DNA of 64,000 nucleotides, from assembly GCA_963772455.1 (NCBI GenBank), contig CAVYXJ010000007.1, forward strand, positions 1-64,000, in the 5' to 3' direction. The position numbers were made by a program, and so were the translations under genes. The stretch's first letter is position 1. Every line of letters starts with the position of its first letter. This document shows positions 6,594 through 23,638 of the stretch, piece by piece. Origin of the DNA: Candidatus Bathyarchaeota archaeon (GTDB taxonomy: Archaea > Thermoproteota > Bathyarchaeia > Bathyarchaeales > Bathycorpusculaceae). The notes below the pieces were generated by a model. The model saw only the letters and a list, made by a program, of their open reading frames with translations, was not told the origin of the DNA and did not search any database.

Positions 6594-7847
6594 TTACCTC
6601 CAAGTTATGATTTGGGCATTTTGTCTTGAATTATCGTAGTAAGATCCAGCTGTGAAGACCGCGTTTGATCCTGATACAAGTCCGAACGCAATTGAATTCG
6701 CTTCTGTCCCTGCCGTTGTAAACCAACTGGTCATTGATACAAGACTTAAACTGACTCCATTCCAGTCTAAAAGTTGAGCATAATCTCGGAAACCGTCATT
6801 TGTTGTTCCTATGGTGAAAATGTCCAAACCAGTACCAGCATTGTATTGACCTATGGCAATAGCATTGATCTGTGTATTTGAGGTGGTGAACCAAGATCTA
6901 TAAGAATTTACGACCATTGTTGCTCCGTCCCAAACAGCTAACTCAGAATTCCAACGAGTACCGTCAAAGAAAGAACCACCAGTTACAAGTTCGTTTCCAG
7001 CAATACCATTAACATTTCCGACGACCAAGGAGTTCAATAGTGTGGATCCAATTGTGCTCCAGAATCTATAGACACTAACAGTCATTGTAGATCCAGTCCA
7101 AACGGCTAACTCAGCATACCTCTGCGAATTGAAGAAAAATGAACTGCCAGTAACCACCTCGTTCAGACCATCATTGTTAACATCACCAACTGTTACAGCA
7201 GTAAGTTGAGTGTCAGAAGCAGTGATCCAGGCTCTAAACGCATTAACAGCAAGTGTGGCTCCATCCAAAACGACTAGTTCTGCATGCCATATTGTACCAT
7301 CAAAAAATGAACCAGCAGTTACAATTTCGTTTCCCGCTACACCATCAACATCACCGATGGCTAATGAACTGATTTGGGTATCTGCCACTGTAAACCAAGA
7401 CTTATAGGCGGTAACGACCATTGTTGCTCCGTTCCAAACAGCTAACTCAACATTCCAACGAGTACCGTCAAAGAAAGAACCACCAGTAACCACCTCGTTC
7501 AGACCATCATTGTTAACATCACCAACTGTTACAGCAGTAAGTTGAGTGTCAGATAAAGTGGTCCACGACCTGTAGGCAATAACAGTCATTGTTGTTGGAT
7601 CCCAAACTACCAATTGAGCATTCCAATGTGTCCCATCGTTGAAATAACCTGCTGTAACCAATTCGTTTTGTCCGTCAGCATTTACATCTCCAATTGCAGA
7701 TGAAGCAATATTGGTGTCACTAAATGTGAACCATGTTTTAGTATTCTGTGAAAGAAGGGCAGATGTTGTGTTGGACATAACTGACATTGTGAGAAATACT
7801 GCAATTGATAGCAGCACTATTATTTTTTGAGTTTTGCTTTTCAACAT
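6594..7847 (-). CDS. Secreted FG-GAP/VCBS-like beta-propeller repeat protein
   Basis: Signal peptide followed by about seven 56-aa repeats with GDVN.DG.NE.VT.G Ca-binding-like loops. Confidence 0.8.
   Translation of the reverse strand: MLKSKTQKIIVLLSIAVFLTMSVMSNTTSALLSQNTKTWFTFSDTNIASSAIGDVNADGQNELVTAGYFNDGTHWNAQLVVWDPTTMTVIAYRSWTTLSDTQLTAVTVGDVNNDGLNEVVTGGSFFDGTRWNVELAVWNGATMVVTAYKSWFTVADTQISSLAIGDVDGVAGNEIVTAGSFFDGTIWHAELVVLDGATLAVNAFRAWITASDTQLTAVTVGDVNNDGLNEVVTGSSFFFNSQRYAELAVWTGSTMTVSVYRFWSTIGSTLLNSLVVGNVNGIAGNELVTGGSFFDGTRWNSELAVWDGATMVVNSYRSWFTTSNTQINAIAIGQYNAGTGLDIFTIGTTNDGFRDYAQLLDWNGVSLSLVSMTSWFTTAGTEANSIAFGLVSGSNAVFTAGSYYDNSRQNAQIITWR
6910..7553. repeat. Near-exact intragenic DNA repeats
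   Basis: 71 bp identical at 7147-7217 and 7483-7553. 74 bp with 3 mismatches at 6910-6983 and 7414-7487. Confidence 0.9.
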
Positions 7848-7921
7848 TTTAGAAAATCTCCTTTTGGTCTATTTGATTTTTAACTATCATTTCGGGATAA
7901 AATTTTTTATGTTTAAAAAGT

Positions 7922-7945
7922 TGTGACTTCAAAGATGAAGTCACA
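7922..7945. promoter_or_regulatory. 24-bp palindromic operator, site 1 (upstream of beta-propeller gene)
   Basis: TGTGACTTC-AAAGAT-GAAGTCACA has perfect arms. On the minus strand TTTTTAAA follows 2 nt later. Confidence 0.7.
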
Positions 7946-7970
7946 AACATATGTGGGTTTATCATGGTAA

Positions 7971-10900
7971 TCATCTTTGGGCGTTTGCAGTGTTTGATGG
8001 TGTAGAGTTGGCGGTCATTGAAGGATATCCAGTTACTGGGATGCCTGTGGCCATGAGGATGCCTACGTTGTTTGATGCTATGATTCTGTAGTAGTATGTT
8101 TGACCTGGGGTACCTGTAGTATCTGTGTAAGATGTGGCTGTTGCTGATGGAGGCGTAATTGTTGTGAAAGTGGTGAATGCTGAAGTTGTAGATTTTTCGA
8201 TGATTAAGCTCGTAGCGTTTAGGGCATTGTTTGTCCAAGCTAATGCGATGCCGCCTGTAACATGATTCGCTGTTAATCCTGTAGGTGCTTCTGGAGGCAT
8301 TACAAAACACATGGGTCGCATCATGTCATTTTCTTCGTGACCCAGTAGGTGGCAATGGTCAACGTATTCCCAGCCGAAGTTTGTCAGTTGATTAGTTACT
8401 GTAACAGGGTTGCCTATTGGATTGATGTTGGTGAAATTCATTGTGGCGCCTTGTGGTTGCGTTGGATCGAGTAGTCTGATGCTGTTTGGAAGCTTGAACG
8501 GATGATTGTTAGGAGCAATTGGTCTTAGTGCCAATATGATATCTTCGAGTGGATTCATTTGCACAGTGTCTTTCCAGCCAAGCTCATTAGGATCAGCAGG
8601 TTTTATAGCTCCGTCCCAGCCGACACGATTTAGAATTTGTACGTTGAACAGATGGAAGTGCTGAGCATGTGTATCTACTCCGTTGTGAGTGAACTTCCAA
8701 AGTTGAGTTCCATCGGTTGCCGATCCAATTGGAATGGCAGCACTAGAGTTACCCATGATTTCGTTTGGCGGATCTATGTAAGCTTGGATAATAGTTGTCT
8801 GAATTGTACCGTTAGTGTTAGGTATTTCATAGGCAAGAATTGCGTTCATTCGCCCATAATCGTTAGTGAAAAGCTCATGAAGTCCTTTGGGAAGCAGAGG
8901 CATAGTTATTGGGACGGTTTGGCCGACTGGAGTAAACGTGTGAGTTGTGTCTTGGATTCCTGCATAAGCGGATATGTCGCTTGGGAAGTTTCCATTGTAG
9001 GCTGCATTGTAGGGTTCTTGTGGACATATGATGGTGTCTTCAGATATACGGAATGCATTAGCTAAAGCTGTTTGTAACGCTGCAAAGGTGGCAGGATTGT
9101 AGTCATTAGGTGGTGCTGTTGAGGAAGCTCCTGCGGCTACGCGAATTTGCATTACGGTTCGGACGTTTGGACCGTAACCTGGGATTGTGTTTGGAGCGCC
9201 GCCTGTTGATGTCTGGTCTCCGTTGTTAGTGAAGTAGTCTAATCGAGGGTCAGAAGCCGGTACTGGAGCTGGTGCATCGTTGTATAAGATAAGGGTCTTG
9301 CCTGCGAAATTGGTGAAATCAATAAGTACGTCAGCTCTTTCAGCTGGTCCTAAGAAGCAAGCTTTCTCTAAGACGTTCAATACTGTTATGCTTCTTCGGT
9401 TGTAGTCGTAGCCTACTGGTCTGTTAGTGATTAATGCTGGAGCAGGTAGGAAACCGCCTTCTGTGCCGATTTGGATGATTGCTGGACCTCTCCGTGCTGG
9501 ATCTGGGAAACCTCCCGCTCTGCTATCTGGTGTTGGATAATCCGCTGGCCAACCACCTGCATTTGCTGGAAGCATACCAACTTCAGTTAAGCCCGTGTAT
9601 ATTGTTGCTGTTGCAGTTGCTGTCGTATTACCTATGCCTCCTGGCGGAGCGATTGTAACTGTGGGTGCTGATGTGTAACCACTACCTACGCTTAAGAGAT
9701 TAATTGCTGTTACTGCCCCGGCTGTCACTGTTGCAGTTGCAACTGCACCTGTTCCTCCTCCACCTGTAAGAGTTACTAACGGAGCAGATGTATACCCACT
9801 TCCTCCACTAGTAATATTGATTGTGTTAATGATGTTAGATACTAAATATAGTTGCAAGTTAACAAATCGATCGTTGCAGGCGTTTAGAACGCGGAACCTA
9901 ACAAGTGTTGGATTTACGTTAAGGAATGGGTAGGCGTTTCCGTTGACGAGTGGTGTATCCATGAATGATTCTGGTGTGCCAGATGGATTAGGAACTCCTG
10001 GAATTACCGGTGGTTCCCATGGTGCGGACGTTGGATTGTAGTATGGATTTGGCACTGTTCCATGTTGCACTGTCCAAGGAGGCCAGAACCATGGGCCATA
10101 ATCCCATCTGCCGCACGGGTTCGCTCCTTCAAATGAATAGGGGTTCTGGTTTGGCATGTAAACGTGGGGGAACCACAAGTCACCTGTGTTAGGTGCTCTG
10201 ACACCGTTGACTAATGGGTTACTTCCCCAGTTCCAAGTGGGATCTTGGGAAGCTATGGTTGTGGCATCTACAAAGGTTTTATCTTGAATAACTAATGGAA
10301 TTCCAATGTCAGGAAGAATTTTTGCTTGAGTTGGATTAGCTCCAGAATTGTTGGTTTGATTTATGAAGTCTTGTTCGACTGCATCAGTTAGCACGTAGCC
10401 CGCTGCTTCTCCAGCGTAAACGTTGAGACGAGTTATACCTAATGCGTGATCATGGTAAAACATTAGTCGAGCGCTTTGCTGGTTGCTGTAGAAAAAGGTT
10501 AATGTTCCCTGAGGTTCGTACTCCGCCATCCATATCGGGGACATTCTTTACTGCAACACCACTCGGGTAGGGAGTACTTTCTGTTGCAGGTGTAGTCCAT
10601 TGATGCGGAGTTCCATCGCTTATCCAGATTGTGTTGCCTCCGTGAAGGTGTAAAGTGGCACGGTTCTGTGTATAATTGCCTCCGCTTGGTCCTTCACCAG
10701 CACCCATATAAGTTGTATCACACGGTATGAAGAGATCTCCTCCAACACCCGTTGGGAGCTTGTTGACAAATTTTATTCGTACTGGACGATCTCTGGTGGC
10801 AACAATTATGGGTCCAAGATAATGAATTGGGGCAAGTGGAACACCCGCAGCATTAACCTGTACATAGCCCCTCAATTTGGTAGGAGGAAGATCTGAATGC

Positions 10901-11783
10901 ATTTTCTCCGTGTATTCTCTTAACTCTATTCTGTAGAAGTCAGATCCAGGGTAAGTTGTTGTATCTGCAACAGCAACTGGTATAAACTGTCCAAGGTTGT
11001 TTGCCCCTGTTGGTCCTAAACCAGGCAAAGAATCCACGAATTTGCGGATTCCACCATTGATAACAAAAGTTCCAGCTTGCTGGTGAATGTTGCTGTTGCA
11101 ACTGCTCCTTTGGCTCTTGGACTTGGGTCCCTTAAAGAAACCGTTGGAGCTGATGTGTATCCGGTTCCCGGACTTGTAAGTGTTAAAGCCACTACAACTC
11201 CGTTCGAAACTCTTGCCGTCGCTGTTGCGCCTGTTCCTCCACCGCCCGTGAGAACAACATATGGAGTAGTATATCCTGAACCGCCACTTGTAACTGAGAA
11301 ACCGCTAAGGGTACCTCCACTTACAGGAGTCCCAGTCACTGTAGGCAGTGGACTGTTAGCGTAATTACCTGTGGTTCCAAAATAGTCAGGTGTACCACCT
11401 GGAGCTGGAACAACAGTTGGAGCAACAACAGCTGCGTTTGGTCGTGCAGCAGCAGCTGCCAATCTCTGGGCAGGTGTTATTTTGCCTTTATAGTTTAAAT
11501 GGATCTTTTCTTTATCAGCCCCGGTTGTAGGAAGTGACTTAGAAACCGCTAAAGCCAATCCAACAACAGCCGCACCGCCTGCCGCAACCTTAACGAAAGT
11601 ACGTCGAGAAATCCTGTCATTTGCGGTGTTTGCGTTATGACGCCCCAACACTTTTTTGGTCGGGGGTTTTTTTTCTTGTGTTAATTCGCGAATTGGGGCA
11701 CCTGCAACTGCAGCGCCCGATTTGAAGAAATTCCTTTTAGACATATCCTTTACTGTGCTATCGGATTCTTTTGGGTTCGACAT
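7971..11783 (-). CDS. Large Tat-exported multicopper oxidase with C-terminal Fn3 domain (OmpB/MofA-like); two frameshifts (~11050, ~10520)
   Basis: Three ORF pieces join into one protein. Tat motif SRRTFVK; copper motifs [27 protein letters not shown]; Fn3 motif APTGLTA...W...YTD...YYYRI. Confidence 0.88.
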
Positions 11784-11833
11784 GAAAAGTATCCTCTTTT
11801 AATACCATTCTAATCAACATCCTTTTTAAAATA

Positions 11834-11857
11834 TGTGACTGTATCAGTACAGCCACA
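11834..11857. promoter_or_regulatory. 24-bp palindromic operator, site 2 (upstream of large MCO)
   Basis: TGTGACTGT-ATCAGT-ACAGCCACA, followed on the minus strand by TATTTTAAAA. Confidence 0.75.
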
Positions 11858-12006
11858 ACTTGCTTAAGGCATCAGATATACGATATGCAATTAAAAAGCA
11901 TCAAGGATTAATGAATTAGTTCTATCGAGTTGCGAATAAAACTTCAAGTTCTGGAATGTCAATTATTAACTTCCAGCATACTTTTATGCAGCTAATTTTT
12001 TGTTGC

Positions 12007-13741
12007 TTATGTTAGAGACAAAATTGCTGTTCCAGCAGCACCTTTGGCTCTTGGACTTGGATCTCTGATGCTGACTGTAGGAGCTGAAGTATAACCGCTT
12101 CCCGGATTAGTAAGTACAAAGCCTAGAATCACACCGTTGGAGACTCTAGCAGTGGCCATAGCGCCTGTCCCGCCACCACCAGTCAGGAGTACAGCAGGAG
12201 TAGTATAGCCACTGCCACCACTCACAAGATTGAAACCTGTGAGTGTTAACGTTGTCGGAGCCAAAATCGTAACTGTTAATGACACGTTATGAATAAATGA
12301 GCCGCTTGAGCCAGTTACGTTAACGTAGTATGTTCCTGCACTAGCTGCATTCGATGCTGTCACTGAAAGTACAGATTGATTTGAACCACCTAACGGAACA
12401 ACAATTGAGGATGGACTAAGTGATGCAGTCCAGCCCGAAGGAGAATTCACAGAAAGAGAAATTCTACCAGAAAAACCATTAATTGATGAAACTGTAATAG
12501 TTGAATTTGTTAAAGATCCATTTTGCGTTATTAAGGGGTGAGGAGAAGTCGAAATTGAAAAGTCAGACCCGATTCCAGTTGTATAGTTCCATATTATTGG
12601 ACTGCCTAAACCTGTGACAAAATCGTAACCTGTAGTCGCCGAGTATGCTCCGTTTGATCCCGATGTAATATCTCTAAAATATGTTGGACCACTCCATTTT
12701 GCGTCTTGGTAGAGGTTATTTCCTGAAACCGAAAGACTAAGGGAATGTATAGCAGCCCATTGAGGTGCAGCAGCGCTTGTTCCACCTACTTGGAACCAGC
12801 CTACTTGACCTTGATAAGCCGTCGTATCGTAGACGGAAAATCCTGATGCAGGGTCAGAATTATATGAGACATCAGGTATTGCACGTTTTCCGTTTGCACC
12901 CGAAACGTTGTAGGTCAATTGATATTGAGGCTCATTTTCATAAATGCTTACTCCGCCGCCACTTCCAGTCCAACCTGTTTCTGAAGCCACAGTTCCATCA
13001 GGATTAAAGTTAAGATGTGTGCCGCCAACGGCAACAACATTTGGTGAGGTTGCAGGATAAATTACTCCTGCCCCATTGTCACCTGTAGCTGCAAAAAAAA
13101 CTTTCCACTAGAACTGCTAAAATAGGAATCAAGGTTGTTTTCGCCCAAGAACTCAGATGTCCCCCAACTCATAGAGACAGCTACAACATCTGGACGATTA
13201 GTCGCATAGTTAATGGCTGCGAAAAGATCTGTTATAGAGTTGCTTTGGGCTTCAACTAATAGTATTGTGGCGTTGGGGGCTATGGCATGAGCCCACTGAA
13301 CATCAAGCGATATTTCCAGTGCCCAATTAGCATCAACGGGTATGTTTGGTCGTCATTTTATGGATTTCTAAATTCGTTGTGGGCAAACCATATTGCATGC
13401 TAAAAACAACGAAGTCATTTTGGACAGTTGGGCAATCGTATGCATCAATGATTGCAATGGTCCCATATCCACCCGTTGAGGGCAAGTTATATGCTCTTCG
13501 AATTTGCATTGGAGATAAACCGGTAGGAGAAACTGTTGCGAGCGAGATTGGGTTTTGGGATGTTCGTTTGAGGGCCAAGTTTATGGTTGTACGCATGAAA
13601 ATAAGTTTGCGCTGAAATCTCATGGTTGGGCTGCGAAGAAGCGACAATTTCTGAACCAGGCAAACAAACAACAAACAAGATTACAAATAGAAAAATGACC
13701 ATGCATATTCGGGCTTCTAATCGATGTTTCACTATTATCAT
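12007..13741 (-). CDS. Secreted S53 (sedolisin/kumamolisin) serine peptidase with C-terminal Ig-like and Gly-rich domains; several frameshifts
   Basis: Catalytic motifs EISLDVQWAH (~13290-13320), ATGDNG, RAIPDVS, GGTSAAAP and GYDFVTGLGSP lie across frames. Signal peptide in ORF 13487..13741. Confidence 0.85.
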
Positions 13742-13855
13742 TCCAAGAAAGTACGGGTAGTTTTCTTCTAAGCCCCTAATTATTAGGTGATTGACTTCTT
13801 TGTAAACTGTTTCCGAGTTTCGGAGGTATTATGCTTTTTTAACGATAAAAGCAAT

Positions 13856-13879
13856 TGTGGTTGTGACATAACAGCCACA
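13856..13879. promoter_or_regulatory. 24-bp palindromic operator, site 3 (upstream of S53 peptidase)
   Basis: TGTGGTTGT-GACATA-ACAGCCACA, with AT-rich TATA-like sequence just downstream on the minus strand. Confidence 0.75.
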
Positions 13880-14054
13880 GCATGGTAAGTATGAAGAGTT
13901 TACTCTGTTATGGGGTATAATTGGTAAAATAGTTTTATGGAAACATCGGAAAAAATTTTCTGAATATCTTAAGTGTAAAAAAATTTTTTAAAAGAGGAGA
14001 TAATAAAGTAAGATCCTTGTTCTTTTTTCATTTTGAGGATTTTAAATGGTTTCT

Positions 14055-14243
14055 AATTTGCTTTGAAATGACCAACTAAAGGCCGCATAATATCGTGTTT
14101 CTTTGTGTTCCAAGGTATAACAATGTGTTAAATATGCTCTATTCGTCCGTACTTCCATTTAACTGAGAAAGACATAGTTGGAATCTTGAAGAATATTTAG
14201 AGAGTAATATTTTAATTAGATTTGTTCTAACAGTTCCTTTCCA
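14055..14243 (-). pseudogene. Decayed multicopper-oxidase C-terminal remnant
   Basis: Minus strand reads WKGTVRTN...RF and YLTHCYTLEHKE/HDIMRPLV across frameshifts. These match the MCO consensus WKDTVxxNP...RF and YVWHCHILEHEExDMMRP. Confidence 0.65.
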
Positions 14244-14428
14244 TTATTCAGTAAGTGTATTGGATGATTTTGAGAATTAGAAAAATCCTGTTTCTTCCTC
14301 TTGTACTAACTGAGAATACGATGAGGTATCTAAAAAGTCAAAATCGATAAAAACTTGATAAATTTATTCATTCTTAAAAAAAGGAAAATAGCGGTTGGCT
14401 TCCGCTTCTTTAAGTTATTTGTGTGCAT

Positions 14429-16437
14429 TTAACCTTGTGGCTTATTGACACCGAAGTAGAACATCATGTCGTTTTCTTCATGTTCTAATATGTGGCAGTG
14501 GCAGACATACAAGTTAGTTCCTGTCGGCGCATCTTCAGGTAGGTCAAATTTGGCGATGATTCTTAGCACTTCTCCAGGATTGGCTTTTGCAGTATCTTTC
14601 CACCCTGTCTCTTCAGGTCCAGGTGGGATTGGCACAGTTGGCACACCATCTTGCAAAAGGAAATTATTAACTGAAGGTCTTGTTGCCTTGGGTCTTCCTG
14701 CCTGCGATCCATGCATTCCAAGCAACTAGGAAAGCCTTTGAATCGAATACCTGACGGTCTACTATCTTGAATTTTACAAGATGCAAATGCATTGGATGCG
14801 CATCTCCAGTGGTGTTAATGAACTGCCAGACGTTTGTTGCTCCGTTGTCTTCAGTAAATAGTGGCGGATTTGGTGGGGCACTTTCCGTGAAATTTTGTCC
14901 GTCTAGGAGGGCTTCTAAGGGTTGACCGGTAAGTGGGATCCATTATTTCTGAGATAACAATTTCTCTCCATTTTGATTTCGCTGGTTTTGTTAGCGGGGG
15001 ATCGATGGGTGGCAATTTTAGACGATTGGGCAATGACGTTGTGATCTTTTCGAACAAGTGGAACAATTTGAACTGCATTATTTCTAAGACCTGTCCGCCT
15101 CTTCCGCCTGGATAAGGAGCCTTAGCATTATTCATTAATGTCAACGTGTTGTGCCAGGCTTTCCTCCATTCCTGTGAAGTCAACGATGGTATCAAATCGT
15201 TCTCCTGGAGCTATAACTAGGCTGGTGAGCTTCGTTGGTTTAGGAAGGAATCCTTGCTCAGACCCTATTACCCATATTGGAAGAGTAGTAGGTGAACTTG
15301 GACCTTGGAACCAGATATTGTAGAATCTAGCTTGAGAACCGTTTAGGAAGCGGAATCTGTACCTTCTTGGTTCTACGTTAAAGAATGGAAATGCTCTCCC
15401 GTTCACTATAGGTGTGTCGCCGAAGTATTCTGGTATCCAGAGGGGATGAACAGTTCCTGGTGTGTTCGGTTGGCGGATATATTGCACCACCTGTTCCACC
15501 TGTCTGGAGGTCAAGAAGTCTGTCCTGTAGTACTATTGGAACCTCGTATGCTCCATTTGGAATTTCACCATCTTTAATGAGTTTGTTCTCACCTGTTGTC
15601 TCTTACGATGTATGCAGCTGCTTGTCCTAGGAATGGGTTGAATCTTGTGATTCCCCATGCATGGTCATGATACCATAGCATTGCCGCTGCTTGGTCGTTT
15701 GGATATTCGTATGTATGGGAACCTGATTTTTTCGGATCAATGTTTTTCCTTCTGGATATGGATTTGCCTGCGTGGATCCTACTGGCGAGAACCAGTCTCT
15801 GGGACCTCCATCGTGTTCAGTAAGTACTTTGCCGCCGTGTAGATGTACACAAACACGGTGTTCATCAGTCCAGCGAGCCAAGGTATTAGCTGGCAATCTA
15901 TGGATCAGTGTGTGCCCATGATGGTATAGTCCATTGGGCTCGACTGGACCAGCTTGATGAATTTGATGAAGTCCAGTTGGAAGTTTGTTTGTCACTTTAA
16001 GTTTCACTGGTCTTCCACTTTGGGCTACAATGGTTGGCCCTAAGTAAATGAAATACGCCAGGTACTGGAGCTGTGGCAAAATAACTTTGTGTATTTGTTG
16101 TAGCTGGCAAGCTTGAGTGAAATTTATGCCCTGTTCCAGGCACTATTGAGATCTCATAATAGTCCATTCCAGGATATTTCGTAGTATTGGGTGTAAGTAC
16201 TGGAGGAATCACCAAAGGATCTACGAATTTGTCAGATCTATCAGCTCGGGGGCACATTTGAGCAGCAGCAAAAATGGTTGAATCTTGGTCAGTTTTCCGT
16301 AAGGGTTTTGGCGTTAGTGTGCCGATTGTTGTCGCTATGGCTGTAGCTCCGGCAGCTATTCCAGCAATTTTTAAGAATCGTCTTCGGGAATTTCTCTCCT
16401 TATCTTGATGACCTATTTTCTCCTTTTCTTTATCCAT
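14429..16437 (-). CDS. Second Tat-exported multicopper oxidase (CotA/bilirubin oxidase-like); multiple frameshifts
   Basis: Tat motif SRRRFLK; VHLHGG; LWYHDHAWG (~15655-15680); YRFRFLNGSQAR; APGERFD; HPMHLHL (~14780-14800); GWKDT; HCHILEHEENDMM. Confidence 0.88.
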
Positions 16438-16499
16438 GCTTCCACTTTCCAAAAAGTATTTATGTTTAAAATAGGAAATCACTCACTTATTTAATATAA

Positions 16500-16523
16500 T
16501 GTGGTTGTCACAGTGAAATCACA
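16500..16523. promoter_or_regulatory. 24-bp palindromic operator, site 4 (upstream of second MCO)
   Basis: TGTGGTTGT-CACAGT-GAAATCACA, followed on the minus strand by TTATATTAAATA. Confidence 0.7.
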
Positions 16524-16567
16524 CTTTTTTACTCTCAGTTTTCTAGAAATAGTCTACAACTTTTCCA

Positions 16568-17214
16568 TTAGTCAATTTTATACGTTTTATCCGCCAATTT
16601 TGCCAAGTTAGAAGCATGAGTTGAAATCAGTATTGTTTTCCCTTCTTCTTTAGATTTTCAAAGAAATCAGTTATTGTCTTTGCAGAAGCTTCATCAACAA
16701 ATGTTAACGGTTCGTCAGCAACAATTATTTTCGGTTCAGTTATTAATGCTCTTGCCACTGCTACCCTCTGCTGCTGTCCTCCTGAGAGTTGTTCGACATT
16801 GAAATATGCACGTTCCGACAATCCCAACTGATTCAACAACTCAAGAGCGGATGCTTTGTATTCTGCTGGATCCACATCATGGCATATTAGCGGAGTCATT
16901 ACGTTTTCCAAAGCATTGAAGTTAGGAAGCAAATTGATGTGTTGAAAAACGAAACCCATGTTTTTTCTTCTAAAGATAGCTTTCCAACCGTCAGAGTAAG
17001 AGGTTACGTCTTCTTTGTCAAACAACACCTTGCCTTTAGTGGGTGTTAACAGTTGTCCTATCATACTCAACAGCGTGGTTTTACCGCATCCGCTGGGTCC
17101 AACTAGCGCCGTTATTGCTCCACTTTCAGCTGTCAAATTGATATCGGTAACCGCTTCAACTTGATGTTTTTTTCCCTGATTATAGATTTTCGTCAAGTTT
17201 ACTACTTCAATCAT
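16568..17214 (-). CDS. ABC transporter ATP-binding protein (LolD/MacB-type); C-terminal frameshift
   Basis: Walker A GPSGCGKT, LSGGQQQR and DEP motifs. The H-loop GKTILISTH lies in the adjacent frame after ~16645. Confidence 0.88.
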
Positions 17215-18437
17215 GCTCGGGCACCTCTCATAGCAATGTCAGGATCAACCGTCGCGTTAAGCCATGAAGGAATTACTGTAGCAAAAAGAAGAGGAACGAT
17301 AGTCACAGCAAAAGTGAAGAGAACAGTTTGAAGGCTAATAAAAACGGGTAATTGAAAACTTGGGTAAATGTTAGCCCATCCCAACATGAAATCTCTAAGG
17401 ACTGGAGCACCAAGAACACTATCGAAAAAAATTCCAATTGTCAATCCTATTGCACCAGCTAATGTCCCAAGCACCAAACTTTCCACTAGCCGAACCTGAA
17501 TCACGTCCGATGTTGAAAATCCAAGAGCCTTAAGAAGCCCAACTTCAAATTTCGATTCATGCCCAACAACAACAGTTTGATTAAACGCGATTATCGCCAC
17601 CGAGATTAAAATGACATACCAAACAATCGAGAAGAAACCTGATTTGTCACCGTAAGTTTTTTCCTGAGCATCAAGAAGAACATCTTTTGTTAACACACGA
17701 CAATTGGCCAACCCACTTATTGCCCGAGCCGCTTCATTAACAAAGCACCTTTTAAATCATCGTCTACTGGAGTAACATAAACCATCAAATCTGTTACTTT
17801 GTCATTCGGTATGTTGAAGAAATCTCGAGCTGCATTGAGGTTCATCAATATCATGTCTGCGTTATAGATGCCGGATTCACTGTTGAAAATTCCAACAACT
17901 GTATACCGCTTGACTTGGTTGGATTCTGATATTATCGACAGTTCAGTTCCAACACTAGCCCCAAGTAATTCAGCAACACCTTTTCCTATAACCACACTCT
18001 CATTCGACTGTGCATCAATAAAACGACCTGACTCTAAAGGGTAAGCAACTGTCAAATCAGGAGCAATCCTACCGTGTTGAGACATGTGCAGAGTTACCCA
18101 AATCGAGACCTACAATCACTATAAGCGTATTTCCTACGTTTCCATATCCCCAAATCCTTTGTGAAACAGTACTGACTCCTGGAGCGCTCCCCATAATGTA
18201 ATTCACGTAACTTGTTGGGATGAGTGTTTGTCTTCCACCTTGTATACCTTGAACGGTTAGGTCAGGAGCATACTTTAAGCTCAAAGCGCCCTCTTTCACA
18301 AGACCATCTGACAAGAATGCAACAGCGGAAAATGTAGAAGCTGCAACAACTAGACATATAAGAATAACTACTGTTCTCAATTTGTATCTTTGAATACAAT
18401 TCAAAGCATAATTCAAAAGATTCTTAAATCGTTTCAT
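17211..18437 (-). CDS. ABC transporter permease, FtsX/MacB/LolE-like; frameshifted into three ORFs
   Basis: N-terminal TM, extracytoplasmic GRF...VVIG...VVGIF segment, and C-terminal EVGLLKALG...E FtsX motif. Confidence 0.85.
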
Positions 18438-18746
18438 TTGCCACCCTCAATCACAGTAAAGTTGGTTGCCATTGGGAAACTAATGAAAGGAACACCCATC
18501 GAAAAATAGTTGCAGTAACCACCTGGCACATCATAGAGTCCAGTGCAAAGAACCTCAACGCCTGGGTTCCTCGCTGCAGGACTAAGATTTCCAACCGCTA
18601 CACTCGGCAAACCCACAATGTAACGTAAGAGAGTCGGCATTGTTTTCTTTCGTTGACCAAGAAATTTCGCTTACGACACAGGAAACAAAAACAAACGTAA
18701 GCAAGATTGCAATTGCATAAATTAATACTCTTGACGTCATTTTCAT
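18434..18746 (-). CDS. Small membrane-anchored hypothetical protein (frameshifted)
   Basis: Purine-rich SD-like sequence, then ATG and a hydrophobic N-terminus (MKMTSRVLIYAIAILL) joining ORF 18434..18640. Stop overlaps the permease start. Confidence 0.5.
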
Positions 18747-18762
18747 CTGCTTCCTCTTATGC

Positions 18763-19247
18763 TTATTTGATAATTAAAAGTACCCTCGTACCCATTTTCT
18801 GTTGGTGATAAAAAGGAAATTTCATTTCCATAAGTCAAATTGATAAGACATTCCTAGTTTTGGTGGTGGAGGCTTTACCAAGTCAAAACCTGAAAAAGTA
18901 ACGGTTGTTGATTCAATATCGGATCACTCGGTGTAGCATCAAATGTTTCGACAAGTATGCCATTGCAGTACATAGACAAAGTTCCCTGATTTTTGCCAAT
19001 CTTGAAACTTCAAGTCGACAACAAGTATTGCTGGATCATAAGTTGTATAATTAAATCGTGAACTTGCTCTTTGACCCGACTGAAGCGTCACAGTTTCTTG
19101 AGCATAATTCTCTTTGATTGAAAACTCCGATTTGACCATTTTGACCTGAACTTGAAAGGTAAGGGGTGATTCCAACAAAAACAGCAATCAACACAATTGC
19201 TACAACTACGCCGCAATTTCTACTACAAAGAGTTTCTTAAGGTTCAC
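18763..19247 (-). CDS. Hypothetical exported protein (frameshifted)
   Basis: Hydrophobic N-terminus near 19247 plus ORF 18939..19187. Fills the operon gap. Confidence 0.4.
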
Positions 19248-19269
19248 AAGATAAAACTCCAGTTAGATC

Positions 19270-20116
19270 TTAAAATCGATCTCGACTGAATTTGAAATAA
19301 TAGAAATCTGCTTTCACATTAAACATTGCTAAAAGCATCCCCACCCAATCTGCAATAACAATAAGAACTGTACCAATAACTGCTAAAATTATACAAACAA
19401 GCATGACTTTTCGCATTAATGACGGAATTTCTTTTTGAACACCTGGCATTTTATTTGAAGATCTCCGAAACAGAAAACTCCAAATTACTAATGCAGCTGA
19501 AACGGAGTATGCGGCAATAACGCCCCAAAGTAGAGGATACTGATATGTTATGAAGCAGAATGGGCAACCGACATTAAATAATCCAGGCGCAGTACTCGAG
19601 TAAACAACCATGCAGCAGGGAACAACCAGCGGTTTTAGTCCGCCAAAAAAAGCGATGTCCAACAAGGCATCAATGAATAAAAGCGGCAAGAGTAAAACAA
19701 AGCCTCGTGAGAGTGAAGTCATCATTGTAGAACCTTTTAGTTTTCGGTTCATTATATCATAGAAAAGCCAGCCACCAAAGGCAAACATGGTGAACAATTT
19801 CAAACCCAAGTCTGCCCAAGACCAAGGTGCTCCTGCTTGGAAAACACCAAATTCACACATTGCACCAGGAACAGAAGGAATTAATGATACGACGGTGATC
19901 CAGAATAGAGGAATTGCAAGAAATTCTAGTCCCAAGAGTCATCCAACCAACAGTTGAGACTAAGTAAAAATCTTTTTCCAATTCATAACGTTGGTCGGCA
20001 GATGCACCTTTGATGCCCTCTTCTACTTTGTATGCTTTCAATGCGGCAAAGCAACCTACAGCTAATGCGAAGAGAGCTATGGCTAAATCGACTGCTACAT
20101 ACAGGTTTACAATCAT
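19270..20116 (-). CDS. Cys-motif polytopic membrane protein (frameshift ~19925)
   Basis: ORFs 19853..20116 and 19270..19935 join. Several TM helices with PGAMCEFG, VPCC and GCPFC motifs. Confidence 0.7.
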
Positions 20117-20151
20117 CCATTATTTCTCCTTGTTCTCTGATTTTAATAGAC

Positions 20152-21795
20152 TTATGTGCTTTTCAGTTTCTTAAATGCAAAGATTGAGCCTGCTATTATG
20201 ACAACTCCAACAACCAAAGCCAGCATAAGCATTAGCGAGGTAGGTGCCGCAGTTGTATCTGCTTGGGCATACCAAGTACTTATTGCATCATTTACCAACT
20301 TGACCTGTGTAGTTGAGGGTAATGCGTAATGTTGTTCTGGTGAAGTGTATTGAGAGAATCCGTTGGCGAGGAGGTTGTCGGCTGCTGTTTGGTTATATGC
20401 TGCTCGAGCTGTAACGCAGCTTCCTCCACGCAGGTATATCGCAGTAGATGGACTAACTGTTACTGTTGCTCCATAGTTTGAGGAATCAACGGTTATTGGG
20501 TATGATGGTCCGTACCAGTCACAGTAAGTTTCAATATGTAACGTTTCATAGTCGTTGATAAGCTGCATGGCGCACATGAAGCATTCAACATAATGGATCT
20601 TTCCGGCTCCATCGGTTACTATATACCGTGTTTGAGATTCGGGGGTCACATCCATGCCGCATGCCTCGCATTCTAGAATTTCTCCAGTTATTGCTGTCGG
20701 CGCTGGCGAGTATGTTGGCGTGGCGGTTGGAGAAGTAGATGGAGATTTTGATGGGGACACAGAAGGCGAAATACTCGGAGTTGGAGAGGGAGTCGGTGAT
20801 GGAGTTGGGGTTGGAGAAGGCAATCCTACCCCATTGATAAGTGCTGCTTGAGCTACTCCTAGTCTGGTCGGGTTTGCATTTGCGGTATCGTTGCTTAAGG
20901 TTGAGAGCCATTTTGAGGTGCCGTTGTTTGGCAGCGCAAGCAAATCATCTGCAGCTGAAGAATTGTACACTATTCTGTTCTTAGTGCATCCTCCAGCGGT
21001 TATAATCAGAGCATCTGGCGGATTGACTGTGACATCAGTGCCGTTGTTTTTGGCTATTATTGATATAGGATAGCTTGGTCCGTAATAGTCACAGAAAGCA
21101 GTAATGTTAAGATCGTTATAGGTCCTCTGCAATCTTAGAGCGCAAACCGGGCAACATGCGATATGCAAAGTACCCGTAGCGTCAAAAATTTTGAACCGCG
21201 CTTGACCAGTTACATCCACTGACATTCCGCATTGCTCACAAGCAGAAGTTGCGCCTCCACCATACTGTAATACTGCCTGGGCGATCCCAATTCGGTTCGC
21301 GTTAGGGAGAACTGTAGCGTTAGTCATTGGGGAGAGCCACTGTGAGGCCCCATTATTTGGAGGCGAAAGCAGAGCATCAGCAGCAGCTGCATTGAAAACT
21401 AACCTGTTTTTTGCGCATCCACCGCCAAGAATTATTACCGCAGTCGGGGGATTTACAGTCAGAGCACTACCACTTTGCTTGGCGTTTATCGTTATGGGGT
21501 AGGTTGGTCCGTTATAGTCGCAAAAAGAAGTGATTGTGAGTTCTCCATACGTCTTAACCAGCTTGAGAGCACAAACTGGGCAACACGCAACATGCTGACC
21601 TCCGGAAGGATCCGTAATTCTGAATCGGGCTTGACCAGTTGCATCAACAGCCATCCCGCATGAGTCACATGGTTTTGTGTCCATTTGGCCATATGTTAAG
21701 GTGGCTAATCCGGAAATAAGCAAAGCTGAAATAATTACAATGTTAACTACAATTTTTGATTTTTGTGAAATCATATGGAAAATCCCTTGCCCCAT
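20152..21795 (-). CDS. Membrane-anchored surface protein with three NosL/TRASH-like Cys-rich domains (putative copper chaperone)
   Basis: Signal peptide; three copies of CxxCGM...C(C/F)xxC...CD(Y/W)xGP...GxC; Pro/Ser/Thr linker; C-terminal TM helix. Confidence 0.7.
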   Translation of the reverse strand: MGQGIFHMISQKSKIVVNIVIISALLISGLATLTYGQMDTKPCDSCGMAVDATGQARFRITDPSGGQHVACCPVCALKLVKTYGELTITSFCDYNGPTYPITINAKQSGSALTVNPPTAVIILGGGCAKNRLVFNAAAADALLSPPNNGASQWLSPMTNATVLPNANRIGIAQAVLQYGGGATSACEQCGMSVDVTGQARFKIFDATGTLHIACCPVCALRLQRTYNDLNITAFCDYYGPSYPISIIAKNNGTDVTVNPPDALIITAGGCTKNRIVYNSSAADDLLALPNNGTSKWLSTLSNDTANANPTRLGVAQAALINGVGLPSPTPTPSPTPSPTPSISPSVSPSKSPSTSPTATPTYSPAPTAITGEILECEACGMDVTPESQTRYIVTDGAGKIHYVECFMCAMQLINDYETLHIETYCDWYGPSYPITVDSSNYGATVTVSPSTAIYLRGGSCVTARAAYNQTAADNLLANGFSQYTSPEQHYALPSTTQVKLVNDAISTWYAQADTTAAPTSLMLMLALVVGVVIIAGSIFAFKKLKST

Positions 21796-21822
21796 AATTA
21801 CCGCTTGCTTCTTTTGAAAGTT

Positions 21823-21846
21823 TGTGGTAGTGCAGTAACAACCACA
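21823..21846. promoter_or_regulatory. 24-bp palindromic operator, site 5 (upstream of NosL-like/ABC operon)
   Basis: TGTGGTAGT-GCAGTA-ACAACCACA. Confidence 0.75.
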
Positions 21847-21965
21847 AATTATGACGCTGTCAACATAAAAAGCTTATGAAAAAAAGAAAAGATCTAATGA
21901 AACATCCAATTTACCAACGCTGAAACTTGAATCAAAATCCGAAACAGAAAAAATTTTCCTAAAAA

Positions 21966-22904
21966 TTACACAAGATAATGTTTACAGTTCGGACAGTAAT
22001 GCAGATTCGCCTCAATTGTAGAACGACAATACTTACAAGTTGAAGTAGGAGTTGGAACAGCGAACCATTTGGATAACAAAGATTGAGAGTTGCCGTTGCC
22101 AATTCTTTTTTCAAATATCTTGCCTGCGAATATGCTGATTTCAATCAATGAAAGAAGCGCTAAGAACAAGTAAAGGTCACCTATGGGTGTTGCACCTGGC
22201 GAGATTAACATAGCTACGATTATGAGTCCAGCCCAAATGTACTTTCTTTGCTTAGTAACTGTTTTTGTGTGCAATACCCCGAACTTAACTAAGAGCACGA
22301 AGAACGCTGGGATCGTGAAGAGGATTCCGCTTATTATGACTGTGAAAAATACTGTGCTGTAAAAATCCATTATCGGGAAGATTTCCATTGCATTTACCGC
22401 ATTATAGAATGGAATGAACCCTTGAATGAACGATGGAGCCAAGAAGAAGAAACCAAAGAAGGCGCCTAAAACAAAGAGTGCAGATACAACTGTGACGAAG
22501 GGAAATACCGCGTGTTTTTCATGCGGATACAAAGCTGGATCGATGAATTTGTAGGCTTCATATGCAAAAATCGGCAACGTTATTCCGACTGCAAACATAA
22601 CAGCCGCATATGCGTATAGAGTAATGGGATCAGACATAGAGCTTGCAAACAACTGCACTCCCTGCGGCAAAAACATGTTACCAATATAAACTAAAAGCAC
22701 GGACATCAACGGTTTATAATTCTCAGTAGTTGCAAAGAAGTCACTGTTGCCAGGAAGAACTAGCATAACAAACAACGAAACAACAAAAACAGCCAGCACA
22801 ATCTTCATACGTTTTATGAATTCGGTAACGTGTCCCCAGAATCCTTCAAAGAAGCTCTGTCCGTCAGGCATGTCAATGACTCTCAAATTCTTTTTTAGCT
22901 TCAA
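21966..22904 (-). CDS. tatC: Twin-arginine translocase subunit TatC with C-terminal zinc ribbon
   Basis: FWGHVTEFIKRM N-terminus, FIDPALYPHEK, six TM helices, ISPGATP. Tail CKYC...CPNC. Confidence 0.92.
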   Translation of the reverse strand: MKLKKNLRVIDMPDGQSFFEGFWGHVTEFIKRMKIVLAVFVVSLFVMLVLPGNSDFFATTENYKPLMSVLLVYIGNMFLPQGVQLFASSMSDPITLYAYAAVMFAVGITLPIFAYEAYKFIDPALYPHEKHAVFPFVTVVSALFVLGAFFGFFFLAPSFIQGFIPFYNAVNAMEIFPIMDFYSTVFFTVIISGILFTIPAFFVLLVKFGVLHTKTVTKQRKYIWAGLIIVAMLISPGATPIGDLYLFLALLSLIEISIFAGKIFEKRIGNGNSQSLLSKWFAVPTPTSTCKYCRSTIEANLHYCPNCKHYLV

Positions 22905-23040
22905 CTATTTTTTTTGTCAAGTTAGATGTGGAAGGGGAAGACAGAATCCTCTCGAGTTTTTTGCACTGAGTTAGTGAAAAAATTCTTAGGGAATCAAATG
23001 TCTTATTTTGCCAAGAAAGAATAAAGGCTGAAGTAGCCAT

Positions 23041-23379
23041 TTATTCGGCGCCTAAAATTTTTACTTTCACGGATATTTCTTCGGATAGTTGCTCTCTTGT
23101 TTTACCTTCAGTAGGTATACCTAGTTTTTGAGCTGTTTCAAGCAGCATTTCATCTTTAGTTTTGATAGCTGTTGGTTGAGTAGCAGGTGCGGCTTGCGGA
23201 GCTGGCGTAGGAGTGTTTTCAGTTGTTAAAGCGGCAGTATTGAATTCTTTTGATGCTTTGCTGAATTCGCCTTTGGCTTGTCCTAATGCACGGGCAAACT
23301 GTGGAATCTTTGCTGGACCCCACATGATAATAACGATTGCAACTACACCGATGATGATCCATTCCCATCCTTCGAGCAT
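23041..23379 (-). CDS. tatA: Twin-arginine translocase subunit TatA
   Basis: EWIII...WGPAKIPQFARALGQAKGEF TM plus amphipathic helix signature. Confidence 0.92.
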   Translation of the reverse strand: MLEGWEWIIIGVVAIVIIMWGPAKIPQFARALGQAKGEFSKASKEFNTAALTTENTPTPAPQAAPATQPTAIKTKDEMLLETAQKLGIPTEGKTREQLSEEISVKVKILGAE

Positions 23380-23443
23380 TTATAAAATTCTCCTGGATAT
23401 TTCTTTATTTTAACTAATGGTGAGTTGTTTTCTTAAATAGATT

Positions 23444-23467
23444 TGCTGTTGTATCATAGCAACCACA
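23444..23467. promoter_or_regulatory. 24-bp palindromic operator, site 6 (upstream of tatA)
   Basis: TGCTGTTGT-ATCATA-GCAACCACA, followed on the minus strand by TATTTAAG. Confidence 0.65.
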
Positions 23468-23638
23468 ACCGCTTGCTTGGTTAGCAGAAAATCCAAAAAA
23501 ATCTAATGATAACTATTCTGGGCGAAATACTAAGTAAGTAGATAAATATACGCTTACGTTACTGTGTGAAATAATAATCAAAACTTCCCCTTAACAATAA
23601 AAGAAGTCTAAACTATTTAGAACACTGGAGCAAGTTAA

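Follow-up and report, generated by a model that had tools for sequence, protein, structure and literature searches.

The 64,000-nt stretch of Candidatus Bathyarchaeota archaeon DNA analyzed here (the window; contig CAVYXJ010000007.1) carries at positions 6594-23467 an island of genes, all on the minus strand, in which a twin-arginine translocation (Tat) system, a conserved membrane module and two multicopper oxidases (MCOs) stand together. We tentatively read the module as an ATP-driven, extracytoplasmic copper-handling apparatus that would serve the exported MCOs and resemble nosDFYL in its logic. Gene identities, an outward topology deduced from sequence and model, linkage across lineages, purifying selection and a recurrent MCO neighborhood carry this reading, and from them we infer the metal, the direction of its transfer and the client. 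The source genome (G000, 2.45 Mb, 24 contigs) was compared with the genomes of relatives (G numbers) and with related loci (L numbers). The locus is an accessory island of a Bathyarchaeia genus of peat or soil and has three layers, i.e., the translocase TatAC, the outer module and a variable secreted cargo. The module consists of a TRASH-domain protein, a membrane protein with conserved cysteine motifs (mem), two small exported proteins (sm1 and sm2) and an ATP-binding cassette (ABC) transporter of MacB/FtsX type. The cargo in the window consists of two MCOs, a sedolisin (S53)-like peptidase and a β-propeller protein. All genes named in a preliminary description of the window were recovered on the minus strand and at the coordinates given there (Table 1), and mem, sm1 and sm2 are, to judge by their sequences, real conserved genes.

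We found mem encoded at 17 species-level loci of the genome collection, 15 of them titled Candidatus Bathyarchaeota archaeon, one Thermoproteota archaeon and one, an 8-kb contig, Candidatus Sulfotelmatobacter. The core mem-sm1-sm2-FtsX-ABC was complete at 13 of these loci and cut by a contig end at three (L030, L035, L037); at the remaining one (L043) a mem fragment stands alone. A TRASH gene lies immediately upstream of mem at 12/17 loci, with tatA-tatC upstream of the TRASH gene at 8/17, and an MCO was found within 10 kb, on either strand or side, at 8/17 (L029, L031, L032, L033, L034, L039, L040, L041). The gene order of the window, tatA-tatC-TRASH-mem-sm1-sm2-FtsX-ABC-MCO-MCO-propeller, recurs in L032, where all genes are intact (106, 302, 371, 254, 167, 101, 418, 223, 715 and 1278 aa from tatA to the second MCO), and L029 encodes an intact MCO1 of 1280 aa that is 92% identical over 856 residues. 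The genes hence co-occur in other genomes, as the preliminary description had anticipated. By the synteny counts, only the core of five genes is fixed, mostly accompanied by the TRASH gene, and Tat and secreted enzymes are frequent but variable partners. In G001 (L014/L027), for example, intact tat genes, TRASH gene and core are followed by an S53 gene, a collagen-repeat protein and a 1899-aa adhesin. MCOs, S53 peptidase and propeller are thus variable cargo, and the system is neither fixed nor self-contained; the latter had been proposed, but does not agree with the share of loci that have an MCO within 10 kb or with G001, where no Tat-signal MCO lies beside the module.

Within the class, the mem family is rare and patchy, being present in 9/301 evenly drawn genomes and 7/107 genera. 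The cassette of the window is 86.2% identical in DNA to that of G002 (window 14330-23479), compared with 74-82% over a 20-kb flank (23533-45878; G002 loci L013 and L133), and its GC content is 0.42-0.46 versus ~0.40 for the genome. The higher cassette identity and GC content suggest recent exchange within the genus.

The membrane protein mem matched no Pfam or NCBIfam family. A word-indexed search returned 229 related proteins, the best 120 of which are all at least 69% identical and without names, and an exhaustive HMMER search gave 204 representative proteins at E≤1e-3 and 40 at 1e-10, most of them 320-345 aa long and 25-35% identical. In a 64-sequence alignment, C87, G90, C167 and C168 are invariant and G84, A85, M86 and C184 nearly invariant; in a 24-sequence alignment, C87, C167, C168, C184 and C187 are invariant, with the motifs PGAMC, CC and CPFC, and in longer forms of the protein the motif reads HHCP(F/Y)C. 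AlphaFold2 (AF2) with the 64-sequence alignment produced a six-helix model with a predicted local distance difference test (pLDDT) score of 91.9; a model from 12 close sequences (pLDDT 43) was not usable. Lysines and arginines number 5, 4 and 5 in loops 1, 3 and 5 (14 in total) and 0 and 1 in loops 2 and 4. The positive-inside rule applied to the AF2 helices therefore places the five conserved cysteines, one in loop 2 and four in loop 4, on the outer side. Foldseek found no match of the model in the Protein Data Bank (PDB) at E≤0.001, and a wide VIA-align comparison returned generic helical bundles only (best Z 13.3, in a range that is uninformative for helical proteins). The best ESM Atlas score of mem was 0.83, a lead only. 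Prediction of an FtsX-mem complex gave a median of 0.26 at a mark of 0.32, a value that counts neither way on binding.

The neighborhoods of the wider family were surveyed at 80 metagenome loci by tblastn with archaeal queries, many of these loci being shorter than 3 kb. An ABC ATPase neighbors mem at 59 loci, FtsX at 50, TRASH at 27, sm2 at 27, sm1 at 13, an MCO at eight and tat at two. Gene order varies between clades, i.e., TRASH-sm2-FtsX-ABC-mem, mem divergent from ABC-FtsX, or ABC-FtsX-sm2 divergent from TRASH-mem, and the linkage kept through these rearranged orders argues for a functional unit. Pfam analysis of 139 neighboring open reading frames (ORFs) of 15 loci confirmed MacB_PCD/FtsX and ABC_tran and found MCOs in L062, L094 and L119, the last by Pfam only and hence beyond the tblastn tally. 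Around distant mem genes, neighbors are of both bacterial (TonB receptor, BacA) and archaeal (DUF2117) type. Fer4_5 membrane polyferredoxins (NapH/NosH type) adjoin the distant module in L060 (10486-11412), L065 (2678-3526) and L119 (8319-9263), which hints at electron supply to the outer face. A literature search found no description of a module of TRASH protein, cysteine-containing membrane protein and MacB-type transporter, or of the cluster in Bathyarchaeia; subscription papers or supplements may hold one.

The TRASH protein has an N-terminal signal or transmembrane (TM) segment, three repeats, a Pro/Ser/Thr linker and a C-terminal TM anchor ending in KKLKST. Given the hydrophobic N terminus and the C-terminal anchor, the repeats lie outside the cell. 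Each repeat contains C-x2-C-G-M ... C-C-x2-C followed by a domain of ~100 aa with one more conserved cysteine, and the TRASH pattern C-x2-C-x19-23-C-x3-C occurs, as C43-x2-C46-x23-C70-x3-C74, three times in the sequence. Single-repeat forms of ~210 aa are the common version elsewhere in the family; 6/15 members match TRASH and 6/15 match Pfam MerB (best E 5.1e-7). The ESM Atlas gave no usable match with a TRASH repeat as query. The protein had been described as a triple cysteine-rich, NosL-like anchored protein, of which the triple repeats and the anchor stand and the NosL assignment does not, Pfam PF05573 being unmatched. A likeness between NosL and MerB appears in the title of one reference.

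Among the other module parts, sm2 keeps the motifs RNP..E..C and PGGYC across clades. The transporter matches the FtsX C-terminal domain, the MacB periplasmic core and a separate ATPase, i.e., all elements of the MacB/FtsX type; its closest NCBIfam families are lolCE and LolD, with scores far below the equivalog cut-offs (lolCE 62.7 versus 362 bits). MacB-type ABC systems act by mechanotransmission, with the work done outside the cytoplasm. Every part of the module but the ATPase has conserved features on the outer face, as expected of such a mechanism. The ratio of nonsynonymous to synonymous substitution rates (dN/dS) was 0.03-0.11 for tatA, tatC, TRASH, mem, FtsX and ABC (tatA 0.087 compared with G002), and 0.098 for MCO1 over an 848-codon piece compared with L029. 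A control on a flanking helicase, with 192 codons aligned, was not used.

Both MCOs match the Pfam domains PF07731, PF00394 and PF07732, and all four copper motifs (HxHG, WYHDH, HxxHxH and HCHxxxHxxxxM) are present in the window pieces and in intact orthologs. CotA (PDB 1gsk) was matched at E 8e-64 by an MCO2 ortholog and at 2e-28 by an MCO1 ortholog, with weaker matches to CueO (PDB E 1e-15; NCBIfam CueO E 2e-28). TAT_signal PF10518 scored 25.7 bits for MCO1 (cut-off 22.7) and 18.6 bits, i.e., below cut-off, for MCO2. MCO1 orthologs carry two RR motifs in tandem, ~45 residues apart (L029:15784-16050; L032:16647-16900; L039). Only the second makes up a full Tat signal; a good hydrophobic region is missing from the first, which in the window (11500-11783) is KR rather than RR.

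TatC matches the NCBIfam family TatC-Arch (E 5e-32, below the equivalog cut-off). G000, G001, G002, G010 and G012 have one TatC place each, that in the cassette. TatC was found in 12/41 relatives and in 11/25 genomes of the genus including G000, and not in the single-contig genomes G003, G014 and G040. Where further genus members have a TatC, it is of another kind, with an identity of 29-34% in five of them and of 59% in G015, and no cassette adjoins it. At its C terminus, the cassette-type TatC has a zinc ribbon with the pattern CxxC...CxxC (Zn_ribbon_15 or DZR_2, below cut-off; window 21966-22060, L014:17255-17350). A crude regular-expression scan of the G000 ORFs gave 12 twin-arginine matches, of which only MCO1 and MCO2 look classic. 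With a sole TatC and classic RR signals on two MCOs only, Tat in G000 therefore looks dedicated to both oxidases. Moreover, MCOs have RR signals where tat is present (window, L029, L032) and Sec signals where it is absent (L041, L094). The dedicated export module of the preliminary description thus appears to hold for G000, but not for G001, whose tatAC has no RR client in the cluster.

The S53 protein had no Pfam or NCBIfam peptidase match. Its intact ortholog matched the PDB sedolisins 1ga1 and 6m9c at E 2e-10 over residues 197-376. Sedolisins carry the catalytic motifs ExxxD and GTSxxxP, and EISLD and GGTSAGSP are present in the sequence. A module of ~75 aa without a Pfam family is common to three unrelated secreted proteins, i.e., the S53 protein at its C terminus (12010-12260), MCO1 (11080-11310 and 9640-9830) and the 1899-aa adhesin (L014:3388-3640); it may be a surface-anchoring or sorting domain. 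No tRNA genes were found in the 64-kb window.

Table 1. Genes and palindromes of the island, in the order of transcription, and a gene found upstream of mem in relatives. Positions refer to the window unless a locus is named.
Feature	Position	Strand	Description	Frame switches
Palindrome, degenerate sixth copy	23444-23467	-	upstream of tatA; TATA-like box ATCTATTTAAG follows; end coordinate of the cluster	
tatA	23041-23379	-	112 aa, intact; Pfam TatA_B_E PF02416, 44.2 bits (cut-off 21)	0
tatC	21966-22904	-	312 aa, intact, C-terminal zinc ribbon; Pfam TatC PF00902, 121.5 bits (cut-off 25.1)	0
Palindrome	21823-21846		upstream of TRASH gene; start of the TRASH-mem-sm1-sm2-FtsX-ABC unit	
TRASH gene	20152-21795	-	547 aa, intact; TRASH_HVO_1752_C PF24273, 33.5 bits (cut-off 27)	0
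mem	19270-20116	-	PGAMC membrane protein, 264 aa, 6-TM; split by a 1-nt insertion near 19923	1
sm1	18746-19250	-	small anchored exported protein; 167-171 aa in intact orthologs; badly fragmented in window	at least 2
sm2	18437-18740	-	small exported protein; 101-107 aa in orthologs; RNP..C..PGGYC kept	1
MacB/FtsX-type permease	17211-18440	-	Pfam FtsX PF02687, MacB_PCD PF12704 (on 17211-18437); 421 aa in G001	2
ABC ATPase	16546-17214	-	Pfam ABC_tran PF00005 (on 16627-17214); 223 aa in G001	2 (near 16651 and 16571)
Palindrome	16500-16523		upstream of MCO2; abuts TTATATTAAAT	
MCO2	14429-16482	-	Tat signal SRRRFLKIAG; CotA-type three-domain multicopper oxidase; 8 pieces	7
Palindrome	13856-13879		upstream of S53 gene	
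S53 gene	12007-13741	-	sedolisin-like secreted peptidase, NEW3 domain, C-terminal GGxGYT...RDPSPRA module	at least 3
Palindrome	11834-11857		upstream of MCO1; abuts TATTTTAAAAA	
MCO1	7971-11783	-	~1280 aa, CotA-type; two N-terminal RR motifs, GGxGYT modules, large insertions, C-terminal Fn3-like domain	2 (~11100, ~10518)
Palindrome	7922-7945		upstream of propeller gene	
Propeller gene	6594-7847	-	FG-GAP/VCBS β-propeller, 417 aa, Sec-type signal, intact; Pfam FG-GAP, 46 bits	0
F420_oxidored/NADP-oxidoreductase-like gene	L036:9260-9838; L037:9218-9823; L038:9221-9829; L042:6008-6589		~195 aa; palindrome between gene and mem	

The units of the cluster share a palindrome. In its loose form (TGTGRYT-N10-ARYCACA, 24 bp, ≤1 mismatch), it has five copies in the window, all in intergenic gaps of the cluster, compared with 0.19 expected, and 0/100 shuffles reached five. 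These and the degenerate copy before tatA all have an A/T-rich TATA-like box within a few bases, and the first start codon follows 17-114 nt downstream. We therefore distinguish six transcription units, i.e., tatA(-tatC), TRASH to ABC, MCO2, S53, MCO1 and propeller. The position of the palindrome is kept upstream of TRASH in L029, L031, L033, L035 and L040 and upstream of mem in L036, L038, L039 and L042; it also precedes MCO genes in L029 and L041, the S53 gene in L031 and the propeller gene in L032. Across the G000 genome, we found 40 loose sites and 18 sites of a strict form (TGT[GT]RYTG-N8-CARY[AC]ACA), the latter all intergenic (18/18), with none in a reversed-sequence control. Strict sites outside the cluster include C9:195576, C11:56315, C11:86221 and C12:180920, and genes behind other palindrome sites encode InlB-repeat and CARDB surface proteins, a sugar nucleotidyltransferase, a cupin and a small Lrp/AsnC-like protein. 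From these genes and the genome-wide spread, the palindrome is therefore read as the operator of an envelope-type regulon in Archaea, for which it supplies a 24-bp sequence. Since it directly precedes the TATA box, it may be bound by an activator or by a factor acting near the B recognition element (BRE). Of the shared operator motif claimed earlier, one palindrome before six units remains, as part of a genome-wide regulon and not private to the cluster. Two palindromes score terminator-like, but terminator hairpins were rejected as the main explanation because unrelated loci share the conserved arm sequences, the divergent promoter region of tatA contains one of the copies and the strict sites are intergenic throughout. 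A sigma-70 promoter scan, irrelevant to archaea, found 33 promoters versus 35.8 expected from shuffles.

We propose the following, tentative mechanism. The metal handled by the module, on the outside of the membrane, would be a thiophilic one and most probably Cu(I). TatAC would export apo-MCOs, the TRASH protein would serve as the chaperone and mem would be a conduit or relay lined with cysteines; ATP hydrolysis in the cytoplasm by the MacB-type ABC transporter would move its outer domain and so drive metal into the exported apo-oxidases.

A number of observations weigh against this mechanism. An MCO is missing near the module at 9/17 archaeal loci and, by tblastn, at 72/80 metagenome loci, many of which are short contigs. 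At four archaeal loci (L036, L037, L038, L042), nrdR-nrdD-nrdG and the small F420_oxidored-like gene precede mem, without TRASH, Tat or MCO. The G001 cluster combines tatAC and module with neither an MCO nor an RR-signal protein, and dedication of Tat to the oxidases cannot be the whole story. A third MCO of G000 (679 aa, intact, Sec-type signal; C7:234229-236268) is encoded 210 kb away. Because the palindrome is genome-wide, shared regulation is not specific to the locus. CueO-type MCOs are generally thought to take up copper unaided, and TRASH domains bind several metals. Pfam NosL PF05573 gave no match in the cluster at E≤0.01, with one repeat at E≤10, or anywhere in the genome, and the TRASH protein and its profile found no relative and no NosL chain in the PDB. 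Finally, the ABC ATPase as assembled has lost its C-terminal 28 residues, including the ILISTHA H-loop, and MCO2 pieces show a raised dN/dS of 0.21-0.64 compared with G002, with breaks in both genomes.

A broader proposal, which we regard as possible but rather doubtful, is that mem, the MacB-type ABC transporter, the displayed TRASH protein and the small Cys proteins form a new, widespread ATP-driven machine. It would insert copper, or keep Cu(I), for extracytoplasmic enzymes in Archaea and Bacteria of anoxic or micro-oxic sediments and peat, with MCOs and possibly clade III N2O reductases or CuA oxidases as clients. If true, metallation of exported MCOs would be assisted and not spontaneous. 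Metal acquisition by exported copper enzymes has been worked out mainly for N2O reductase and cytochrome oxidase, and MCOs are usually assumed to load unaided. A module beside Tat genes and Tat-signal MCOs is a concrete candidate for assisted metallation or surface Cu(I) management, and mem is a membrane protein family of 204 representative clusters for which Pfam has no model.

A second explanation of the island, for which the MerB matches in the TRASH family speak, is defense against copper (or Hg, Ag, Cd), where TRASH protein and mem would capture the metal at the cell surface, the MacB-type pump would expel it and the MCOs would act as CueO-like cuprous oxidases converting Cu(I) to Cu(II), which is less toxic. 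The name TRASH denotes trafficking, resistance and sensing of heavy metals, and a vicinal CC pair in a membrane protein is reminiscent of MerT and MerF. Also, the MCOs match CueO as well, the module often stands without an MCO, and MntP and P-type ATPase genes occur in some neighborhoods. However, G000 encodes a separate, canonical Cu-type P1B ATPase (C7:446331-448439, 567 bits to TIGR01511), whose N terminus CGMDV...YYFCSQQC, read by eye, is of TRASH/YHS type, and bulk copper efflux therefore does not need the module. In contrast to CueO, MCO1 is an enzyme of 1280 aa for surface display that has additional domains, and CotA laccases are the closest solved relatives with CueO far behind. Moreover, the cluster contains no metal-sensing regulator, and the palindrome regulon comprises surface proteins rather than metal genes. 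We hence consider a defense island doubtful.

The variable cargo and the wide palindrome regulon could also result from mere juxtaposition, i.e., of a general Tat system, a MacB-type module unrelated to copper (e.g., one that handles thiols and disulfides or exports a lipid or peptide) and assorted surface proteins under an envelope regulon. With a CxxC and further cysteines in loops on a four-helix core, mem could be suited to redox chemistry, and both the polyferredoxins at L060, L065 and L119 and the F420_oxidored-like gene upstream at four loci would fit with this. But linkage of TRASH, mem and ABC survives rearranged orders in distant lineages, MCO adjacency recurs in separate arrangements (same or opposite strand, upstream or downstream) and RR-signal MCOs go with tatAC at the same loci, so that juxtaposition appears unlikely to us. 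As weak evidence against it, DsbB and VKOR are absent from the top structural matches of mem.

The copper-handling reading also depends on the state of the locus, which the preliminary description had feared might be dead. Frame breaks were counted from stop-to-stop pieces and by tblastn with intact orthologs, and add up to at least 20 within 7971-20116, all of them indels. Both MCO frames are interrupted in the window; MCO1 and MCO2 are both intact in L029 and L032. The cassette is whole by tblastn in L027, L028, L029, L031, L032, L036, L038 and L041. Consecutive pieces overlap, and a frame slip would therefore suffice to cross each of the breaks; alignments of MCO1, S53, FtsX and mem to intact orthologs contain no substitution stops. 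Compared with G002, most breaks are single-base indels, many of them outside homopolymers. We also compared the region with contigs from a peat metagenome (one DNA run, containing 7% of the words), which gave 42 records, two of them ≥99% and 13 of them 95-99% alike. These contigs differ by one base at 10518/10519, 13350, 14703, 14931 and 15743, each time restoring the frame at an independently found break; the output did not list the remaining breaks or tell the coverage there. Consensus errors are hence likelier than decay, and the high cassette identity to G002 would favor errors from a mixed-population consensus. The locus is thus broken as assembled, but its orthologs are intact.

True decay, perhaps as a loss of oxygen- or copper-linked accessory genes, would be compatible with each of the functional readings. 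The breaks fall within 12.1 kb, and no break interrupts the long ORFs of 963, 1277 and 1121 aa on the flanks. Coverage by stop-to-stop ORFs of ≥150 aa in 10001-20000 is 0.55 at a genome median of 0.78 and a 5th percentile of 0.52, an uncommon value though not the only one of its kind in the assembly. Stops are also carried by a heme-copper oxidase gene (C12:3-1134) and a P-type ATPase gene (C12:207-209 kb), and the case is strongest for MCO2 with its raised dN/dS and breaks in G002. We nevertheless consider decay of the island improbable. Approximately 20 neutral indels should bring several substitution stops, by an indel-to-substitution ratio for neutral decay that is general background, and no alignment to intact orthologs contains one. 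Core genes and MCO1 are under strong purifying selection, relatives and independent contigs lack the indels, and other assemblies (L030, L033, L034, L039, L042) are broken at different places of the cassette, which fits consensus error in co-occurring populations. Elsewhere in G000, we noticed further fragmented stretches, at C12:207282-209001 (the P-type ATPase, ~8 stops), C12:215000-235000 and C10:405000-420000, with ORF coverage down to 0.18-0.33; the cluster is therefore not the only stretch affected by local assembly quality or by decaying accessory regions.

Oxygen-dependent oxidases had seemed at odds with the anaerobic life ascribed to Bathyarchaeia. In G000, heme-copper oxidase subunit I (COX1) is present as fragments with stops at a contig end, and cytochrome bd was not found. 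COX1 occurs in 9/25 genomes of the genus (G000, G001, G010, G012, G014, G015, G016, G022, G023) and in 0/16 of the order's other genera, and four of the five cassette carriers (G000, G001, G010, G012) are among these nine. The strict-anaerobe premise therefore fails for the genus, and O2-dependent oxidases are less paradoxical. In G015, TatC and COX1 are 7 kb apart, and in G012 an MCO adjoins COX1. A literature search found no description of aerobic Bathyarchaeia, although subscription papers or supplements may hold one. A genus whose accessory genes for MCOs, heme-copper oxidase and Tat depend on oxygen and copper qualifies the strict-anaerobe view of the class and bears on the part proposed for the class in lignin and phenolic turnover in peat.

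Among known systems, CotA laccase, bilirubin oxidase and CueO share the three-domain MCO fold and the four copper-binding motifs with the oxidases of the island. MCO1 differs from CotA and CueO by its length of ~1280 aa, two RR motifs, GGxGYT modules, long insertions and Fn3-like tail. The TRASH protein resembles archaeal TRASH proteins and MerB, MerT and MerP in its CxxC...CxxxC pattern, in the MerB matches among its relatives and in the vicinal CC of the accompanying membrane protein; MerA, or a full MerB above cut-off, was not found in the window's TRASH protein. Known TRASH proteins (Sulfolobus CopM/CopT, MerH) are cytoplasmic. That of the cluster, in contrast, is displayed outside the cell and anchored at both ends, in a family with one to three repeats that each bring a ~100-aa domain.

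The ABC transporter is similar to MacB, LolCDE and FtsEX (type VII) in its FtsX and MacB_PCD matches, four TM helices and large outer domain. Unlike MacB or LolCDE, it belongs to an archaeal module, where there is neither an outer membrane nor a MacA or TolC partner, and is always paired with the mem family. In layout, the module is analogous to system I of cytochrome c maturation (CcmABCDE), which also joins an ABC ATPase and permease to a polytopic cofactor-handling protein, to small membrane proteins and to a periplasmic chaperone with an anchor. The two systems are unrelated in sequence, however, and mem aligns with CcmF/CcsBA at Z 10-11.8, no better than with generic helical bundles.

The closest parallel in logic is nosDFYL. 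There, NosD receives Cu(I) from NosL, and a conformational change driven by the binding and hydrolysis of ATP switches partners and passes Cu(I) to the Tat-exported N2O reductase (PMC13685413). Clade III nosZ clusters have a MacB-type ABC transporter instead of nosDFYL (PMC13685413), and transporter genes near clade III nosZ are also reported elsewhere (PMC13477213). The island shares with the nos system a Tat-exported multi-copper enzyme, a Cys/Met protein anchored in the membrane as (in the island, putative) metal chaperone and an ABC ATPase whose work would take effect outside the cytoplasm. Unlike in nosDFYL, no NosZ, NosD or NosL was seen by Pfam: NosZ PF18764 was not found in G000, where the NosZ control was silent as in all genomes, and no NosZ-like ORF is among the cluster's Pfam results. 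Its ABC transporter is of MacB/FtsX and not of ABC-2 type, a 6-TM Cys protein and two small proteins are added, and the clients would be CotA-type MCOs. The nos analogy drawn earlier is hence reasonable in its logic and right about the different ABC class, but does not extend to NosL. We conclude that the locus would work like a nos-type accessory system without being a member of it, and that an undescribed membrane protein family forms its core.

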